Source: Alphaproteobacteria bacterium
GTDB taxonomy: Bacteria > Pseudomonadota > Alphaproteobacteria > Rs-D84
Direction: 5' to 3'
DNA length: 64,000 nt
Assembly: GCA_009784235.1 (NCBI GenBank)
Contig: WRCC01000003.1
Span: 72,984-136,983, forward strand
The notes under the pieces are model-generated. The model saw only the letters and a program-made list of their open reading frames with translations, had not been told where the DNA came from and searched no databases. Position 1 is the first letter of the stretch. The number at the start of each line of letters is the position of its first letter. The position numbers and the translations under genes are program-made. Positions 8,086-59,018 of the stretch are shown here, in pieces.

Positions 8086-8227
8086 TTTCCTTTCCTTTGG
8101 TTAGGTTTAAAGAGTAGATAGGTATTCCACCTATTGAACCAAGCTTAGTACATTGAAAATAAAAAGCAAAGGACTTTTTTCATAAAAAAGTAAAAAAGTA
8201 TAACGGATGATAACAATGAAAAATAGT

Positions 8228-10546: not shown

Positions 10547-11545
10547 TTATTTTTGACTTCTTATAATCCGCCAATTCGCATGATTAATTTTATGCTGTTC
10601 GTAATCTTTGGCAAACACATGCCCACCGGTGCCATCTGCAACAAAGAAATAATAATTTGTATCCGCCGGATTTAAAACGCTGCGAATCGCATCGCGCCCG
10701 ACCGATGCAATCGGATGCGGCGGCAAACCGTGATTCATATATGTATTATGCGGATGTGACGTTTGCAGATGACGCGTTAAAATCGGTTTGCCTTGCATAT
10801 CGCCCAGTCCATCCGTAATTGCATAAACAACGGTCGGGTCGGCTTGCAGGCGCATGCCCTTGCGCAGACGATTAATAAACACAGATGCTACTTTTGGCAT
10901 TTCGGCTTTTTTCGGCGTTTCTTTTTGCACGATTGATGCCAGCGTAATTATTTCATTCCAATTTTTCAGCGGCGGTGGCGCGCGCATTCCCGATTCAATC
11001 CAGTTTTTTTCGATTCGCTGCATTTCGCGGCGCATCAAATCCAGTACAGCTGCGCGCGATGTACCCTTGGCCACTATATAAGTATTCGGGAACAATTCGC
11101 CTTCGGCATAACAAATTGGATTTCTTGGTGGACACGAATCGCCGGTTAAAAATTGATTAGCATTCAACAACGCAATAATCTGGCGCACTGTTAACCCTTC
11201 GGGAATCATAATTGTTGTCGTTGCAACGCGACCATCTGACATTATGCGTGCAATTCGCCAAACAGATGCGCCGCGCGGAATATCGTACATTCCGCGTTTT
11301 ACATTACCGCCGAATGCACGAACCAGTAATTTAAACGGCCTTTCAAATCCGATTAATTTTTGCGATTTTAAATCTGCGGCAACGCCCGCGACAGATGCAC
11401 CACGACCAATATCAAACGTAGTATCAACACGAACATGCGAATGAATACCCAAAAACCAAATGGAAAACAGCGCGACAAAAATAATAATACCCGCACCAAA
11501 TTTTAAAAATTTTTTATGCTTTTTTTTCATGCGGCGATTATACAT
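10547..11545 (-). CDS. mltG: Endolytic murein transglycosylase MltG (YceG family)
   Basis: N-terminal TM segment followed by the YceG-like domain (IPEGLTVRQI, LASIVQKE, NTYMNHGLPPHPI). An alternative ATG start is at 11530. Confidence 0.85.
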   Translation of the reverse strand: MYNRRMKKKHKKFLKFGAGIIIFVALFSIWFLGIHSHVRVDTTFDIGRGASVAGVAADLKSQKLIGFERPFKLLVRAFGGNVKRGMYDIPRGASVWRIARIMSDGRVATTTIMIPEGLTVRQIIALLNANQFLTGDSCPPRNPICYAEGELFPNTYIVAKGTSRAAVLDLMRREMQRIEKNWIESGMRAPPPLKNWNEIITLASIVQKETPKKAEMPKVASVFINRLRKGMRLQADPTVVYAITDGLGDMQGKPILTRHLQTSHPHNTYMNHGLPPHPIASVGRDAIRSVLNPADTNYYFFVADGTGGHVFAKDYEQHKINHANWRIIRSQK

Positions 11546-11598: not shown

Positions 11599-12855
11599 TT
11601 AATCAACTTTCTTTAACAACACCGTGGCATTAGTGCCGCCGAATCCAAATGAATTAGACAGCGCGACATTAACGGTGCGTTTTTTGGCGACGTTCGGAAC
11701 CAAATCGAAATTGCCGACTTCGTCAACCGGGTCTGTTAAATTAATTGTCGGCGGAACGATTTGGTCGCGAATTGCCAATGTTGTAAATATCGCTTCGACC
11801 GCGCCGGCCGCGCCCAGCAAGTGCCCGGTCATGGATTTCGTACTGGACATGGACGTGCCGGAATTTTCACCAACCAATGTTTTTACTGCTTCCAATTCAC
11901 CCGGGTCGCCGACCGGTGTCGATGTTCCATGCGCATTAATATAGTCAATCGCAGATGGTTCCAGGCCGGCATCTTTCAAAGCGGCGCGCATTGAACGCAA
12001 CCCGCCTTCACCGCCCGGTGCTGGCGCAGTCATATGACTGGCGTCTGCAGACATACCGTATCCCGCGACTTCGGCATAAATTTTTGCACCGCGCGCGACC
12101 GCATGTTCGTATTCTTCCAGTACCAATATACCTGCACCTTCACCCATAACGAATCCATCGCGACCTTTGTCCCATGGGCGCGACGCACCGGCCGGGTCAT
12201 CGTTGCGCGTGGATAATGCGCGCATTGCACAGAATCCTGCCATGCCCAGTTTTTCCATCGCTGCTTCGGCACCGCCGCAAATCATAATGTCTGCTTCGCC
12301 GCGTGATATAATCCGCGCCGAATCGCCAATCGCATGCGTACCAGTTGCACATGCAGTCACAACGCAAGTATTTGGCCCTTTGAACCCATATTTAATCGAT
12401 ACTTGACCCGCCGCCATGTTTGCGATTGAACCAGGTATAAAGAACGGACTGATATGCCGCGGACCATTGGTATGCAGTTCGATACTGGCATTATAAATAC
12501 CGGACAATCCGCCGATACCTGAACCGATGTTCACGCCGACGCGTTCTTTGTCGCCTGTATATTCAATCATGTTCGCATCGCGCAATGCTTCATCCGTTGC
12601 GACCAGTGCATATACGATAAATTTATCAATGCGGCCCTGCTCTTTCGGGCTGACGATTGTATCCGGATTATATTCGCCCGGATTATCGCCGCGTAATATA
12701 CGTCCGCCGATTTGTACCGGCAAATCTGCATATTGTTCTTCGGTTAATTTAATGATACCGGATTTACCGGCCAATATATTTGCCCAAGCATGTTCGATTC
12801 CAACGCCGACCGGGGAAACAATTCCTATTCCAGTGATGACTACTCTGCGTGTCAT
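11599..12855 (-). CDS. fabF: 3-oxoacyl-ACP synthase II
   Basis: MTRRVVITGIGIVSPVG... with the KAS II active-site context (CATG) and C-terminal GHLLGAAGAVEAIF. The ORF-track N-terminal extension to 12939 is probably not translated. Confidence 0.95.
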   Translation of the reverse strand: MTRRVVITGIGIVSPVGVGIEHAWANILAGKSGIIKLTEEQYADLPVQIGGRILRGDNPGEYNPDTIVSPKEQGRIDKFIVYALVATDEALRDANMIEYTGDKERVGVNIGSGIGGLSGIYNASIELHTNGPRHISPFFIPGSIANMAAGQVSIKYGFKGPNTCVVTACATGTHAIGDSARIISRGEADIMICGGAEAAMEKLGMAGFCAMRALSTRNDDPAGASRPWDKGRDGFVMGEGAGILVLEEYEHAVARGAKIYAEVAGYGMSADASHMTAPAPGGEGGLRSMRAALKDAGLEPSAIDYINAHGTSTPVGDPGELEAVKTLVGENSGTSMSSTKSMTGHLLGAAGAVEAIFTTLAIRDQIVPPTINLTDPVDEVGNFDLVPNVAKKRTVNVALSNSFGFGGTNATVLLKKVD

Positions 12856-12981
12856 AATAAATCTCCATTTTGTTTGATTGGGCAAATGATATTTGCCCCT
12901 ACATACCAACAACATACAAAAAATCTGCGCGGAATGCAAAACATTTCGCGCAGATTTTTATTTTTGTAAAACGACGACCGA

Positions 12982-13233
12982 TTAAGCTTTCGGGGCTTCT
13001 TTGATGTTTGCTTTGATGAACGAAATCGCATCACCAACGGTCAGCATTTTTGTCGCAGCATCATCTGGAATTGTCAAACCATATTCTTTTTCCAATTCCA
13101 TAACCAATTCCACTTGGTCCAAAGAGTCCGCGCCCAAATCGTTTTTGAACGATGCACCCAGCACAATTTTCGCTTTGTCTTTTATATCAAGTTTTTCTGC
13201 GATAATATCTATGACTTTCTGTTCAATTGACAT
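12982..13233 (-). CDS. acpP: Acyl carrier protein
   Basis: 83 aa, with the DLGADSLDQVELVMELE phosphopantetheine-attachment motif. Confidence 0.95.
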   Translation of the reverse strand: MSIEQKVIDIIAEKLDIKDKAKIVLGASFKNDLGADSLDQVELVMELEKEYGLTIPDDAATKMLTVGDAISFIKANIKEAPKA

Positions 13234-13421
13234 TTTGTTTTCCTTTGTTGTGTTAACTGATGGCCCGTCTTTTTACATTTGTTTCACTGGGCAACTTGAC
13301 GCAAGATACCATTCCAGACGCCCCCATGTCAAATAAATTCTAACAAATTATAACAAGATAGTTTTGTCAAGCAATTGATAGCACCCCGATAAATTAATTT
13401 AATATTACTTGCTATTTATTA

Positions 13422-14420
13422 TTATATTATTTGTTCTATACTTTCATTCATATTTTGACGCAATGTTTCCCGGTCGGCCGACCATTCCAGTCTCTTCATC
13501 ATAAACCTGTGCACATCGGACATTTGCACATCTTTTAATTTCGCACGCATCACAACACGGCGCCACGCGCTGCGCGGGTCGGTTAAATGTCCACGGCCGT
13601 ACGCCCCCGGAAACACATATTGTTTATTCTGCGGCAAATCGCGCAATACAACGACTGCGGCATCAGATAATGGCACTGTGCCCCAATTATCATTATTAAA
13701 ATCCATATCAGACCAGCGCATTGAAAATATTTTCGAACGATTGGCAAATCCATATATTAACATTAAAAATGCAGCGCGAATTATAACATCCGGTTCTGCA
13801 TTAATTGCCGAAACTAATCGGCGCAGGCCCGTTATATTCAATGTTCGCGCGCGGCGCAATTCTTTGAATGGTGCAATTTCTGCCGCCGGATTATTATCCG
13901 CGCATGCAAATTTAAAAATTCCGGACATTATTTCACGCATGCGGTTTGCGGTCGGCGCACCAGATTCGCGCGCGATATTATCAATGATTTTTGTCGCGTG
14001 CACCGCGGTGATATCGTTCAAATAAATCGGATATAACGACACAAATGCATGTTCCATTGCACGAATCAATTTGGCCTTTGATTCTGGTGCGCGGCGAATT
14101 TTTTTTGAAACGAATTGTTTTGCTGCCGCACCAAATGTAATTTTTTTGCTGCGCGACTTTTGCACGTTGCCTGAATCATACAATGCAGCCGCAACACGCG
14201 CGCGCGCATCAAATACATCTATTTCTGGATATCGGCCGATAATGATGCGCACATCGCGGCCATTCATACGCCGACGAACAAAGAAAGTTTTCACCCCGCG
14301 TGCAGTGATATACATTCGCAAGTGCGGTTCCGCGATATCTTGGACAACAATAAACCCGGCGCGCGGCGGCGCCAGGTTATCGAGTATATGCGGCGAAAAG
14401 AAAAATTGATGTGCCACCAT
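13422..14420 (-). CDS. P4-type (DUF4102 arm-domain) tyrosine-integrase homolog that is C-terminally short and probably catalytically inactive
   Basis: The N-terminus RMYITARGVKTFFVRRRMNGRDVRIIIGRYPEIDVFDARA matches the P4-integrase arm-binding domain. The middle region (WTVPL, LSDAAVVVL, YVFPG, HRF) aligns with the integrase core, but the protein ends before the catalytic Tyr box. The start codon overlaps the lepA stop by 1 nt (TAATG). Confidence 0.6.
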   Translation of the reverse strand: MVAHQFFFSPHILDNLAPPRAGFIVVQDIAEPHLRMYITARGVKTFFVRRRMNGRDVRIIIGRYPEIDVFDARARVAAALYDSGNVQKSRSKKITFGAAAKQFVSKKIRRAPESKAKLIRAMEHAFVSLYPIYLNDITAVHATKIIDNIARESGAPTANRMREIMSGIFKFACADNNPAAEIAPFKELRRARTLNITGLRRLVSAINAEPDVIIRAAFLMLIYGFANRSKIFSMRWSDMDFNNDNWGTVPLSDAAVVVLRDLPQNKQYVFPGAYGRGHLTDPRSAWRRVVMRAKLKDVQMSDVHRFMMKRLEWSADRETLRQNMNESIEQII

Positions 14421-16213
14421 TAATCCCCAACTTTCAGTGCATTAATAAATGCGGTTTGCGGGATTTCGACGCTGCCGAAACTGCGCAGTCGTTTTTTACC
14501 CTCTTTCTGTTTTTCAAGCAGTTTGCGTTTGCGTGATATATCGCCGCCGTAACATTTCGCGGTCACGTCTTTGCGATATGCCGCAATGGTTTCGCGCGCG
14601 ATGATTTTTCCGCCGATGGCCGCTTGCAATGGAATTTTGAATTGGTGTCTGGGAATTAAGTCCTTTAACTTTTCCACAATTTGTCGGCCGCGTTTTTCGG
14701 CAAACGAACGATGGCACAGGAAAGACAATGGTTCCACGACTTCTTCGTTAACCAGCACGGATACTTTTACCAAATCGGATGTTTCATATCCATCCAGAGT
14801 ATAATCGAACGAAGCATACCCGGATGTCAGCGATTTGACCCGGTCGTAAAAATCAAAAACTATTTCCGCCAGCGGCAGACGGTATGTCAAAACCGCACGA
14901 CGCCCGATATAAGACATATTTTCTTGAATCCCGCGGCGTTCGGAACACAGCGCCATAATCCCGCCCAAATATTGGTCGGGCAACATAATGGTCGCGCGCA
15001 CCCACGGTTCTTGAATATATTCGATGCGTGTCGGTTCTGGCATATCAGCCGGATTTTCCAAATCAACAATTTCCCCGTCGCGCAGATGAAGACGATACAG
15101 CACGGATGGAATCGTATTAATAAGATTCAGATTGAATTCGCGCGACAATCGTTCGGAAATAATTTCCATATGCAGCAGACCCAAAAAACCGCAGCGCAAT
15201 CCGAATCCCAGGGCAGACGATTTTTCAACCGTGAATACAAACGATGCGTCATTCAGCGCCAATTTTTCAGCACTTTCGCGAAGTACGGGATAATCTTGGG
15301 CTTCGACCGGAAAGAACGATGAAAACACAACCGGCACGGATGGTTTGAATCCGGGCAGTGGTTCAGCAGATTGGCCACTGTTAACAATAGTATCGCCGAC
15401 TTTGCAATCATGAATTGTCTTCATGCCCGTAATAATGAACCCTATTTCGCCCGCGTGCAAAGCATCAACGTTCACCATTTTGGGCGTAAAGTATCCGATT
15501 TTATCAATTGCATATTCCGCGCCGGTTGCGATAAATCGGATTTTCTGGCCGCGCTTTAACGAACCATCAACAACGCGCACCAGCACAACAACACCCAAAT
15601 AAGAATCATACCAAGAATCGACCAGCAATGCACGGGTCGGAGCATTTGCATCGCCATGCGGCGATGGCAAACATTGCACGATTGATTCCAGTAATTCTGG
15701 AACGCCTTCGCCTGTTTTACCCGAAACGCACAGCGCATCTGCGGCATCAATTCCAATAACGTCCGCGATTCCCGCGCGCGCACCGACAACGTCCGATGAT
15801 GGCAAATCGATTTTATTCAAGACCAGTAAAATTTCCAAATCATTATCGATGGCCAAATAAGCATTTGCCAATGTCTGTGCCTGGACACCCTGGGTCGCAT
15901 CGACCAGCAACAGCGCGCCTTCGCACGCAGCCATTGACCGCGATACTTCGTAAGTAAAGTCCACATGTCCCGGCGTATCCATTAAATTTAATTGATATTC
16001 CTGCCCATCGCGCGCTTTGTAATTCAAGCGTACAGTCTGTGCCTTGATGGTAATTCCGCGTTCGCGTTCGATATCCATGCTGTCCAGAACTTGCGATTTC
16101 ATTTCACGCGATTCCAGGCCACCGGTATATTCAATAATCCGGTCGGACAAAGTCGATTTTCCATGGTCGATATGTGCGATTACTGCGAAATTTCTGATAT
16201 TTTTTTGATTCAT
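14420..16213 (-). CDS. lepA: Elongation factor 4 (LepA)
   Basis: 597 aa; [18 protein letters not shown]...; carries the LepA C-terminal domain. Confidence 0.97.
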
Positions 16214-26999: not shown

Positions 27000-27045
27000 A
27001 ATACCGATTGTATCATAATATGTCAGTGTGCTATAATTATTTTTG

Positions 27046-33750: not shown

Positions 33751-34437
33751 TTATTTCGTTACAAAGCAATCAAGTCCGTCTGATTTCGCATTTCTGCAAA
33801 ATCCATTCGCATCCGAGCCATCTTTGAACCCGACAACGCGCAGGCGATGTGTGGTTTTGCCATTCGGCAGAACTGCGGCCAATACGACGAATGAACGGTC
33901 TTCGAACAATGCTTTGTGATTTGCTTGCAATCTGCGTTGTGCGGCCAATGCAGAATCACGCGTGCCGTATGAACCAACCTGGACAGACCAGCCACCGCTT
34001 ACCGCGGATGCCGCGGGTCTTGCCACTGGGGTTTTTGCAACTGGTTTTGGTGCGGGCGCCGCCGCTGTTGTTGCCGGGCGTGGACGCGGTGCTTCCACAG
34101 GTGCCGCCGCCGGATTAAATGTTGCGTTCGCGCGGTCACCAACGACACGAACCGGTGCACCGACATCATCGCTGATTTCAGGCGCGGTTTCATCACCAGC
34201 CGGGGCAATGACGGTTGGCGTCGGCAAGCTGATATCTATATCCACAGATTCTTCGCCGCCGCGGATAACACTTATTATAATGTAAGTAGCAAGGATTATA
34301 ACAATCGCAGCCAAACCGAACAAAAGCCACGGACGACGCGGACGCGCACAAGATTCCAGCGGGCCGCCATGCGGTAATTCCGGCAAATCGATATCATCGT
34401 CCAAATCGATTAATTCCAATTCTTCTCTGTCGGCCAT
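33751..34437 (-). CDS. SPOR-domain cell-division protein (DedD/FtsN-like)
   Basis: An acidic N-terminus, one TM helix, a Pro/Ala-rich linker and a C-terminal SPOR domain (GWSVQVGSYGTRDSALAAQRRL...YRLRVVGF). Confidence 0.7.
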   Translation of the reverse strand: MADREELELIDLDDDIDLPELPHGGPLESCARPRRPWLLFGLAAIVIILATYIIISVIRGGEESVDIDISLPTPTVIAPAGDETAPEISDDVGAPVRVVGDRANATFNPAAAPVEAPRPRPATTAAAPAPKPVAKTPVARPAASAVSGGWSVQVGSYGTRDSALAAQRRLQANHKALFEDRSFVVLAAVLPNGKTTHRLRVVGFKDGSDANGFCRNAKSDGLDCFVTK

Positions 34438-57703: not shown

Positions 57704-59018
57704 ACAAACCATCATCGATATATCAAAAAAACGTGGTGAACCAGCGTGGTTGCTGGACTGGCGTCTGGCCGCGTTCGATGCGTGGAAAAAAATGGATGAA
57801 CCGCATTGGGCAGAAATAGATTACGAGCCGATTGATTACAACGCGCTGAATTATTACAAAGAGCCTACCGAAAACGTCCGCGACAATTCCGATCTGAAAA
57901 AAATATATGAAAAAATGAATCTGCCCGACGCGGAACAACGCGCATTGCTGGGCATGGCAACGGATACTGTCATAGACAGTCGCAGCGTGCATACTTCGTA
58001 TTCCGCGGAACTTTCAAAATTGGGCATTATATTTATGCCGTTTTCCGAAGCAGTCGAAAAACATCCTGATATAATAAAAAAATATTTGGGCACGATTGTA
58101 CCAGCGACGGATAATTTTTTCGCATGCTTGAACGCCGCAGTATTTTCAGATGGAACATTTGTTTATATTCCGCCGAATACTAAATGCCCGATCGATTTGG
58201 CAAGCTATTTCAGAATCGAAACTGCACATATCGGCCAATTTGAAAGAACATTAATTATAGCAGACACAGGCAGCGAACTTTCATACCTGGAAGGGTGCAG
58301 CGCGCCACGCCGTCCAAATCATCAATTGCACAGCGGCGTTATCGAAGTCATTGCGATGGACGGCGCGACCGTAAAATATGCAACAGTTCAAAATTGGTAT
58401 GCGGGTGACAAAGACGGTGGTGGCATAATAAACTTTGTCACAAAACGCGGACGATGCGATGCAAATGCAAAATTACTATGGACCCAGATTGAAATCGGTT
58501 CCGCGATGACATGGAAATATCCGTCGTCCGTGCTGACCGGCACAAACGCGCATTCTGATTTTTATTCGCTGGCCATCACGCGCGGCGGACAAATGGCAGA
58601 CACCGGCACAAAAATGATTCATATAGGAAACGATACTACATCCAACATAGTATCATACGGTGTCGCAATGGAAGAATCACGCCAGACTTTCCGTTCGCTG
58701 ACATCATTCGCGCGCGATACGCGCGGTGCGAAAAGTGCACAAAAATGCGACAGCCGTATAATAGGTGACCGTGCAGTCGTAAATACTTTCCCGACAATTA
58801 TTCATGGCAACGGCGAAAACGACCAAAGCCACGAAGCTGCGACGGGCGCGGTTGACGCGACCGCCCTGGCATACCTGGCCACTGCGGGAATCCCAGTGGA
58901 CGAAGCAACCGCGTTGATTATCGGCGGCATGGCTGCGCCGGTTCTGCGCCGATTGCCGATGGAATTTCTAGTCGAATCAAAACAGCTGATACAATTGGCA
59001 TTAAGTAATGGTGATTAA
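57687..59018 (+). CDS. sufB: Fe-S cluster assembly scaffold SufB
   Basis: 443 aa; FERTLIIADTGSELSYLEGCSAPRRP (SufB EGC.AP motif); beta-helix-like C-terminal half. Confidence 0.82.
   Translation: MPMLTEQTIIDISKKRGEPAWLLDWRLAAFDAWKKMDEPHWAEIDYEPIDYNALNYYKEPTENVRDNSDLKKIYEKMNLPDAEQRALLGMATDTVIDSRSVHTSYSAELSKLGIIFMPFSEAVEKHPDIIKKYLGTIVPATDNFFACLNAAVFSDGTFVYIPPNTKCPIDLASYFRIETAHIGQFERTLIIADTGSELSYLEGCSAPRRPNHQLHSGVIEVIAMDGATVKYATVQNWYAGDKDGGGIINFVTKRGRCDANAKLLWTQIEIGSAMTWKYPSSVLTGTNAHSDFYSLAITRGGQMADTGTKMIHIGNDTTSNIVSYGVAMEESRQTFRSLTSFARDTRGAKSAQKCDSRIIGDRAVVNTFPTIIHGNGENDQSHEAATGAVDATALAYLATAGIPVDEATALIIGGMAAPVLRRLPMEFLVESKQLIQLALSNGD

Follow-up and report, generated by a model that had tools for sequence, protein, structure and literature searches.

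The P4/CP4-57/HPI-type integrases are built from three domains in the order Arm-DNA-bind_3, Phage_int_M and Phage_integrase. In lambda-type integrases, the arm domains read short direct repeats at a period of ~10 bp, which is about one helical turn. The tyrosine recombinase fold has also been reused as a DNA binder. For example, SroF and MrpR (YopR) are phage-encoded master repressors of SPbeta-like phages. They consist of the core-binding and catalytic domains only, with no arm domain, and bind long operators as monomers. Another example is TnsF, an inactivated tyrosine recombinase that serves as the target selector of Tn6022-like Tn7 transposons; it is encoded inside the transposon with tnsABC and carries N-terminal zinc fingers. 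The Ndc10/CBF3 centromere protein and the Crypton-derived genes are eukaryotic exaptations of the fold, with an independent origin and other domain contexts.

Here, we describe a protein, IntL, encoded in a 64-kb stretch of alphaproteobacterial DNA that is referred to below as the window. IntL has the domain order of the P4-type integrases. In contrast to them, it is ~60 residues shorter, its R-K-H-R-H-Y residues are all substituted or deleted, and its gene is found without a tRNA, att site or island, as a single core gene under vertical inheritance and purifying selection. IntL shares with SroF and MrpR a recombinase fold without recombinase function. It differs from them in being the product of a host core gene, in keeping the arm domain, and in that its DNA binding is predicted; no sequence relationship to SroF/MrpR was detectable, and there is no phage lysis-lysogeny context. 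TnsF is unrelated to IntL in sequence, and no Tn7-like or Tsy element with transposition genes lies beside intL in the window or in related loci. By analogy of mode of action, the closest known counterparts of IntL would be the recombinase-fold proteins that bind DNA without catalysis, namely TnsF and, in eukaryotes, Ndc10 and the products of the Crypton-derived genes. Literature searches covering Candidatus Enterousia and integrases that are inactive, degenerate or exapted found no description of the IntL family. Family members are currently labelled in their sources as 'integrase family protein', 'Arm DNA-binding domain-containing protein' or 'hypothetical protein'. The features of the locus are collected in Table 1.

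Table 1. Features of the intL locus; positions are those of the window.
Feature	Position	Strand	Remarks
lepA (EF4)	14420..16213	(-)	stop shares one base with the intL ATG; coupling not conserved in relatives
intL	13422..14420	(-)	332 aa, or 331 aa if GTG 14415..14417 is the start; ORF call and homology
arm-type DNA-binding domain	14166..14420	(-)	residues 1-85; most conserved part of the family
core-binding domain (SAM-like, Phage_int_M)	13878..14135	(-)	residues 96-181; PF22022; structures 2kkv, 2kj9, 2kob
catalytic-like domain, no active site	13425..13835	(-)	residues 196-332
Arg-I position (TGxR; lambda Int R212)	13740..13742	(-)	codon N227; varies across the family (N, P, T, C, G)
T248/V249 junction	13674..13679	(-)	~15-residue deletion; beta-hairpin with catalytic Lys (TKNG in relatives) gone
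S301-D302-V303-H304 in place of H-x-x-R (HDLR in relatives)	13509..13520	(-)	alignment
A315/D316 junction	13473..13478	(-)	~24-residue deletion; His/Trp-III and Tyr nucleophile (GHKS...IYAR in relatives) gone
tandem direct repeat TTGTTAT-AAT-TTGTTAG	13340..13356	(-)	candidate operator; ends 7 nt upstream of the acpP -35
acpP promoter	13303..13332	(-)	-35 TTGACA 13327..13332; 18-nt spacer; -10 TATCTT 13303..13308; promoter scan flags TG upstream of -10
acpP 5' leader	13241..13292	(-)	stem GCCC 13289..13292 / GGGC 13263..13266; GTTAAC 13252..13257; SD AAAGGA 13241..13246
acpP (acyl carrier protein)	12982..13233	(-)	invariant downstream neighbour
fabF (beta-ketoacyl-ACP synthase II)	11599..12939	(-)	comparison with relatives

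Integrase ancestry and active-site positions of IntL

IntL is a homologue of the P4/lambda-type heterobivalent tyrosine integrases, with an arm, a core-binding and a catalytic-like domain. Pfam recognises the core-binding domain above the gathering score (Phage_int_M, PF22022, residues 96-176, E 2.7e-7) and the P4-type arm (Arm-DNA-bind_3, PF13356, residues 34-80, E 2e-5). The match to the catalytic domain (Phage_integrase, PF00589, residues 199-296, E 1.7e-4) is below threshold and spans only profile positions 8-124 of 172. An NCBIfam search of IntL returned no family. A family profile built from 31 members was searched against 1.84 billion representative proteins and found 27,657 of them at E <= 0.001. 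Below the IntL family itself, the best listed matches are mostly proteins of 380-450 aa, which match profile positions ~1-306 with E values as low as ~1e-52. Twelve were aligned, and all have integrase catalytic motifs. These nearest active P4-type relatives align to IntL residues 1-306 at 25-30% identity. The IntL family forms a separate block in the search, with its eight full-length 50%-identity clusters scoring 312-460 bits versus at most 194 bits for active integrases.

Structure prediction agrees with this ancestry. The AlphaFold2 model of IntL is confident (mean pLDDT 89), and its pTM of 0.50 is expected because the three domains sit on flexible linkers. The top Foldseek match is full-length lambda integrase (1z1g; E 6e-8; prob 1.0), which is the best full-length structural match of IntL (1z1g, 1z1b); the alignment with the family profile spans lambda residues 38-224. 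The N-terminal 78 residues match the arm domains of P4-like integrases (3jtz, 3rmp; TM ~0.8). Both the tyrosine recombinase fold and the P4/HPI-type N-terminal arm domain are thus present in IntL. Phage records gave weak matches only (26% identity, E ~1e-4), and a recent phage origin of intL is therefore unsupported.

The start of the protein can be read in two ways. Base 14420 is common to the intL ATG and the lepA TAA (TAATG; the junction reads GGGGATTAATGGTG), and the second codon is a GTG. Initiation at this GTG would give the N-terminus MAHQF, which is the consensus of most homologues, and would put a Shine-Dalgarno-like run, GGGGA, at a better distance. Under either start intL abuts lepA. 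The base composition of the gene (GC 0.41-0.49) is the same as that of its neighbours.

The catalytic-like domain was compared in an alignment of the window protein, seven family members and the twelve nearest active-looking integrases, in which the active relatives carry the motifs TGxR, TKNG, HDLRR and GHKS...IYAR. IntL does not have the catalytic hexad of an active enzyme (Arg-I, Lys, His-II, Arg-II, His/Trp-III, Tyr). At the HxxR box the family reads (S/D)DV(H/Y), with His-II replaced by S or D and Arg-II by H or Y; most members have D-D-V-H/Y. The position of Arg-I is backed by HMMER: when the family profile is independently aligned with lambda Int, R212 falls on the same variable position. 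Relative to lambda integrase, R212 corresponds to a variable non-basic position, and the elements with K235, H308, R311, H333 and Y342 are deleted or replaced. The last 17 residues of IntL (DRETLRQNMN...) still align with the tail that follows the Tyr in active enzymes. Searches with tblastn, using four active relatives as queries, found no frameshifted C-terminal 60-residue segment with the Tyr box in any frame, and no second integrase-like gene in the whole 64-kb window. As judged from these alignments, all six catalytic positions are lost through substitution and two internal deletions, and not through a simple C-terminal truncation.

The sequence-only reading had taken the protein for a P4-type integrase homologue with a degenerate HxxR box. 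The Pfam domains and the profile match at E ~1e-52 agree with the former, the arm motif that it quoted corresponds to IntL residues 35-74, and S301-D-V-H304 agrees with the latter. Its suggestion that an alignment to active relatives would reveal loss of R-K-H-R-H-Y held for all six residues. It had also called the protein truncated before the Tyr box. The box is indeed absent; 'truncated' is not quite right, because the C-terminal tail is retained and the losses are internal deletions of ~15 and ~24 aa together with substitutions.

Inheritance and gene neighbourhood of intL

Of the 328 homologues found in a word-indexed search, the best 120 are all 330-353 aa long, span 98-100% of the IntL sequence with 47-62% identity, and come from uncultured Alphaproteobacteria or 'Rickettsiales' metagenome-assembled genomes (MAGs). 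In a collection of species-representative genomes, a relative of intL is encoded in at least 294 species-level genomes. The 80 that were retrieved are MAGs from rumen, hindgut, human gut and termite gut, many named Candidatus Enterousia, and one of the 80 is a circular chromosome of 958,618 bp. The lineage is the GTDB order Rs-D84, with genomes of ~0.75-1.0 Mb (PMC12306168).

Hundreds of species, at 44-100% protein identity, have intL with an unbroken frame and a constant length; full-length members are 327-353 aa. The median dN/dS is 0.075 (Nei-Gojobori; 82 ortholog pairs with unsaturated dS), and the divergence of IntL (47-58% identity to the window protein) is similar to that of AcpP, RbfA and MltG in the same loci. 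Conservation is unevenly distributed along the protein. Nearly half of the invariant residues, 28 of 58, fall in the arm domain, among them K44, R49, R51 and R58. Mean pairwise identity within the family is 0.69 in the arm, 0.44 in the core-binding and 0.60 in the catalytic-like domain, versus lower and about equal values of 0.38, 0.33 and 0.44 in active relatives. We conclude that intL is a vertically inherited core gene of these reduced-genome gut Alphaproteobacteria and is under strong purifying selection. IntL is almost certainly a functional, non-catalytic protein.

Upstream of intL lies lepA, which is 83-90% identical to genes whose products have GTP_EFTU and LepA_C domains. Downstream are acpP and fabF, followed on the same strand by a mltG/yceG homologue. 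Comparison with relatives suggests that the true start of fabF is probably near 12855, which would give a product of ~418 aa. The order (vtt, rbfA) lepA - gap - intL - acpP - fabF is present in all 86 related loci in which the flanks are available. The two sides of intL differ in their spacing. In most loci, 108-143 bp separate intL from acpP; the outliers are two loci at 376 and 1694 bp. The distance from lepA to intL ranges from -11 to 2276 bp, is at most 30 bp in only 8 of 69 loci, and includes ORFs in 55 of the 69. Within this stretch are 0-4 tandem copies of a Cys-rich ORFan family of ~141 aa; a Pfam search of those in relatives gave no match.

Two relatives at 46% identity (P0121 and P0123) keep lepA-intL-acpP-fabF despite a rearranged rbfA/vtt side. 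In locus L090, rbfA is on the opposite strand and three more genes separate it from lepA, with lepA-intL-acpP intact. A short contig from a relative at 35% identity (P0126) carries intL-acpP-fabF and a cut-off upstream gene of 29 aa. In one divergent relative, also at 35% (P0128), intL lies between an acyl-ACP thioesterase gene and recR and not beside acpP, and acpP-type repeats were not found near it. The constant partner of intL is acpP, not lepA.

Signs of a mobile element are absent. ARAGORN detected no tRNA or tmRNA and Rfam, at gathering thresholds, no family in the whole 64-kb window, and an att-site reading was rejected on these scans. No recombinase, transposase or Tn7 gene was found near intL in the window or in ~150 related loci. 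Neither an att site nor flanking direct repeats nor island or prophage cargo was found; the neighbours are lepA, acpP, fabF and mltG in all loci. The sole repeats at the intL locus are the promoter-proximal TTTGTTAT pair described below.

These results bear on the rest of the sequence-only reading, which had placed the gene, as a domesticated or decaying integrase outside any active mobile element, in an operon with lepA. It was right about the overlap of the ATG with the lepA stop, which is at base 14420, about the flanking core genes (lepA upstream, acpP-fabF downstream), about the lack of a tRNA-like attachment site and about the lack of a mobile element, which it would have given up for a tRNA or att site with island genes, or for a Tyr box in a missed frame; neither was found in the 64 kb. 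Domesticated is the fitting term of its pair. Decaying is not, given the dN/dS of 82 pairs, the narrow length range and the spread of the family described above. An operon with lepA does not hold across the family, given the variable lepA-intL distance and the ORFs that intervene, and the overlap with lepA is limited to the window and a few relatives.

The acpP promoter and its tandem repeats

Immediately downstream of the intL stop is a tandem direct repeat with the family consensus TTTGTTAT-N2-TTTGTTAT, that is, an 8-mer with a 10-bp period. When 76 distinct intL-acpP spacers are aligned, the repeats are part of a block that reads TTTGTTAT-nR-TTTGTTATAATTtC-TTGACA-N~10-AAAATGaTAgtTT and is followed by the leader and the Shine-Dalgarno sequence AAAGGA. 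The family promoter (TTGACA, 17-nt spacer, TG-n-TAgtTT) is a near-consensus extended sigma-70 promoter. The consensus of its -10 region is AAAATGaTAgtTT, and the promoter is also denoted TTGACA/TGATAGTTT. Information content is 1.0-1.8 bits at all 8 positions of both repeat copies and drops sharply beyond the distal copy, on its upstream side.

In the ~880 kb examined, this tandem arrangement is all but confined to the acpP promoter. With at most one mismatch, TTGTTAT-N3-TTGTTAT occurs at the acpP promoter in 81 of 84 loci, and elsewhere there are only 3 matches in 820 kb on both strands; three further matches are the same acpP site, with acpP unmapped or the repeat overlapping the intL stop. 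Of the 73 occurrences of the pattern GTTAT-N5-GTTAT, 72 are at the acpP promoter; the other spacings have 0-11 occurrences. An exact search of metagenome contigs for the repeats with the -35 found 69 places, and all 61 that are informative, with sufficient flanking sequence, have intL immediately upstream and acpP downstream. Within the 64-kb window, the repeat listed in Table 1 is the sole match at one mismatch or fewer. The sole candidate for a second copy in the window, TTGTTATCATCCGTTAT at 8200..8216 on the (-) strand, is not counted as a regulon site; comparison with two related loci (L005 and L066) suggests that a separate conserved element, GTTATAC followed by a T-run, accounts for its 3' half, and in L005 this element is half of a terminator hairpin.

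Two observations concern what the repeats belong to. In one species (loci L072 and L145), a 495-aa ORF on the other strand is inserted between intL and acpP, and the repeats stay at the acpP promoter, which makes them part of that promoter rather than of intL. The proximal repeat together with the following AAT reads TGTTATAAT, a perfect extended -10, and TGNTATAAT is commoner in the window than expected (13 observed, 3.6 expected). As a result, the repeats could be promoter elements stacked on one another, or else an UP-like element.

Between the promoter and acpP, the leader has a short stem whose sequence varies between species with the pairing kept, and a conserved GTTAAC. RNAalifold found no structure in the aligned leaders, because the MAFFT register splits short stems. 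When the leaders are folded one by one, a small hairpin with differing stem sequences appears at a fixed position, with modest z-scores (median -1.3).

Possible roles of IntL

We propose that IntL, which has kept all three DNA-contacting modules, is an exapted integrase that has become unable to cut or join DNA. It probably acts as a non-catalytic, sequence-specific DNA-binding protein. Its most likely target would be the TTTGTTAT pair in the acpP-fabF promoter (about -42 to -59): since lambda-type arm domains read direct repeats spaced by about one turn, this pair is the obvious candidate operator. The arm domain would read the repeats in the way that integrases read arm-type sites, and IntL would tune acpP-fabF transcription locally, up or down. 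The steps of this proposal differ in strength. That IntL binds DNA is likely. That it binds the TTTGTTAT repeats and regulates acpP is possible, and is offered with some doubt. An exapted IntL that is bound to the repeats and tunes acpP-fabF is, tentatively, the best explanation overall. The whole gene order is conserved in these reduced genomes, so the adjacency of intL and acpP may be historical. Similarly, gene and repeats alike are restricted to the clade and inherited vertically, which makes their joint presence weak evidence and not an independent line. The repeats could equally be the site of another factor, such as a regulator of the OmpR type, which also reads direct repeats.

Much of the same evidence can be read with the targets of a DNA-binding IntL elsewhere. 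IntL would then be architectural or nucleoid-associated, or would regulate other genes; its position beside acpP would be a frozen relic of the ancestral insertion site, and the repeats would be promoter elements or the site of another factor. This reading is a serious if doubtful possibility. Adjacency alone says little when order is conserved over the entire vtt-rbfA-lepA...acpP-fabF-mltG region, TGTTATAAT is a consensus extended -10 of a kind enriched in the window, the repeats remain with acpP after the L072/L145 insertion, and the intL of P0128 sits in a different context without repeats. It is harder to reconcile with a tandem form that is essentially confined to the acpP promoter in ~880 kb, with the conservation of every position of both 8-mers, including bases that sigma-70 ignores in an extended -10, and with the tolerance of insertions on the lepA side in most species versus only 2 of 84 loci on the acpP side. 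A bolder form of the preferred proposal makes the domesticated heterobivalent integrase a dedicated, promoter-specific transcription factor for acpP-fabF across the whole order Rs-D84, the TTTGTTAT sites possibly being fossil att arm sites; so wide a claim is rather unlikely to be correct.

The remaining readings give IntL another kind of task or none. In TnsF, an inactivated tyrosine recombinase already serves as a target selector. In the same way, IntL might assist Xer or another integrase as a non-catalytic partner or subunit that selects the site or helps synapsis; the conserved catalytic-like domain (0.60) and the C-terminal helix would fit protein-protein contacts. The absence of recombinase, transposase and Tn7 genes near intL in the window and ~150 related loci, the absence of att-like or dif-like inverted repeats and the stable vertical inheritance of the locus make this improbable. 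A role unrelated to DNA, for example in RNA or ribosome function within an rbfA-lepA translation-factor operon, is more improbable still: it draws on the overlap of the intL start with the lepA stop in the window and on the presence of rbfA and lepA upstream in most relatives, but the coupling is found in only 8 of 69 loci, lepA-intL-acpP stay together in L090 where the upstream block is rearranged, and the best-conserved part of the protein is the arm DNA-binding domain. It is hardly credible that intL is a decaying remnant or pseudogene, or a still-active recombinase with an unrecognised nucleophile. Loss of the catalytic motifs is what decay would produce, and the Pfam match of the catalytic domain is below threshold; against decay stand the dN/dS of 0.075, an intact frame of constant length in hundreds of species at 44-100% identity and a confident AlphaFold2 model, and against residual activity the loss of six of six catalytic positions, two of them by deletion of their structural elements.

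The bacterial precedents that were found still work for a mobile element, a phage for SroF/MrpR and a transposon for TnsF, whereas intL has become fixed in its host. intL persists to 44% protein identity as a single-copy, syntenic gene in genomes that have shed most non-essential genes, and its annotation as 'integrase family protein' inflates mobile-element counts in Rs-D84 (Ca. Enterousia) genomes. Together with the repeat pair it makes a compact, testable candidate protein-DNA pair from an uncultured lineage. If IntL binds the acpP repeats, it would document a passage from integrase arm-site recognition to ordinary transcriptional control of a central lipid-synthesis operon. If it is a dedicated regulator of acpP-fabF, it would control the supply of acyl carrier protein and would be one of the few regulators retained in genomes of ~0.8-1 Mb.

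Neighbourhood of intL in related genomes

The spacing between intL, the catalytically dead integrase homologue, and acpP is tight, with only two exceptions among 84 loci. One is L014, where it measures 376 bp, and the other is the single species represented by L072 and L145, where the two genes are separated by an inserted 495-aa ORF on the opposite strand, whose product appears to be repeat-rich, with a hydrophobic N-terminus. The lepA-intL gap is variable and contains zero to four tandem, same-strand copies of a Cys-rich ORFan of about 141 aa (66 members at 42 loci), the copy number of which differs from species to species. This family occurs only in the relatives, with no copy in the window, and has no match in Pfam.

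The most divergent intL family member, P0128 (353 aa, 35% identity), is flanked by an acyl-ACP thioesterase gene and recR, and its gene has its own TTGACA/TATTAT promoter. The TTGTTAT repeats, the candidate operator upstream of acpP, are absent at this locus. As at other intL loci, a neighbour of P0128 is ACP-related; this may be coincidence.

Features of the window and of related loci
Feature	Location	Strand	Remarks
P0128 locus	L087 2580-5033
495-aa inserted ORF	L072 6022-7509	(-)	also L145
Cys-rich ORFan copies (examples)	L001 5554-5988; L004 4788-5975	same strand	tandem
acpP 5' leader hairpin region	window 13241..13292	(-)
acpP-fabF hairpin	window 12919..12959
Inverted heptamer arrays	L014 3100-3350; L058 intL-acpP spacer; L005 7000-7050
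TTGTTATCATCCGTTATACTTTTTT	window 8196..8216	(-)	5' of outer-membrane-protein gene
TGNTATAAT (examples)	window 13347..13355; 27029..27037; 34295..34303; 58067..58075
Second TTGACA	window 13365..13370	(-)	also L014 about 3355

Hairpins and RNA genes

A small hairpin occupies a fixed position in the acpP 5' leader of the window and about 70 related loci. Its pairing is preserved while the stem sequence depends on the species (GCCC/GGGC, GTTC/GAAC, GGTC/GACC, GTCAT/ATGAC), and 3' of it lie a conserved (A/G)TTTAAC and the SD AAAGGA. Folding the leaders gives modest z-scores, with a median of -1.3; RNAalifold, run on their MAFFT alignment, predicted no structure. A hairpin with an 18-bp stem lies between acpP and fabF, bordered by an A-run and a T-run. 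It has the appearance of a bidirectional terminator or attenuator. Across the 64 kb of the window there is no tRNA, tmRNA or rRNA, and no member of another Rfam family.

Repeat arrays and promoter elements

In termite-gut lineages, long inverted arrays of tandem heptamers are found in intergenic DNA near the intL-acpP locus, GTCGTTG/GTCGTTA being opposed to CAACGAC/CAATGAC and GGTAATC to GATTACC. Within the window, the 5' half of TTGTTATCATCCGTTATACTTTTTT is similar to the acpP repeats; the CGTTATAC and T-run of this site recur 3' of mltG in L066 (about 10933..10961) and also in L005 (7065..7110), where they lie in the 3' half of a terminator hairpin.

Loci of the termite-gut subgroup carry another TTGACA 8-9 nt 5' of the distal acpP repeat; this second hexamer could be an additional promoter element. 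TGNTATAAT occurs 13 times in the window against 3.6 expected, and this excess suggests that extended -10 promoters are in frequent use in this organism.
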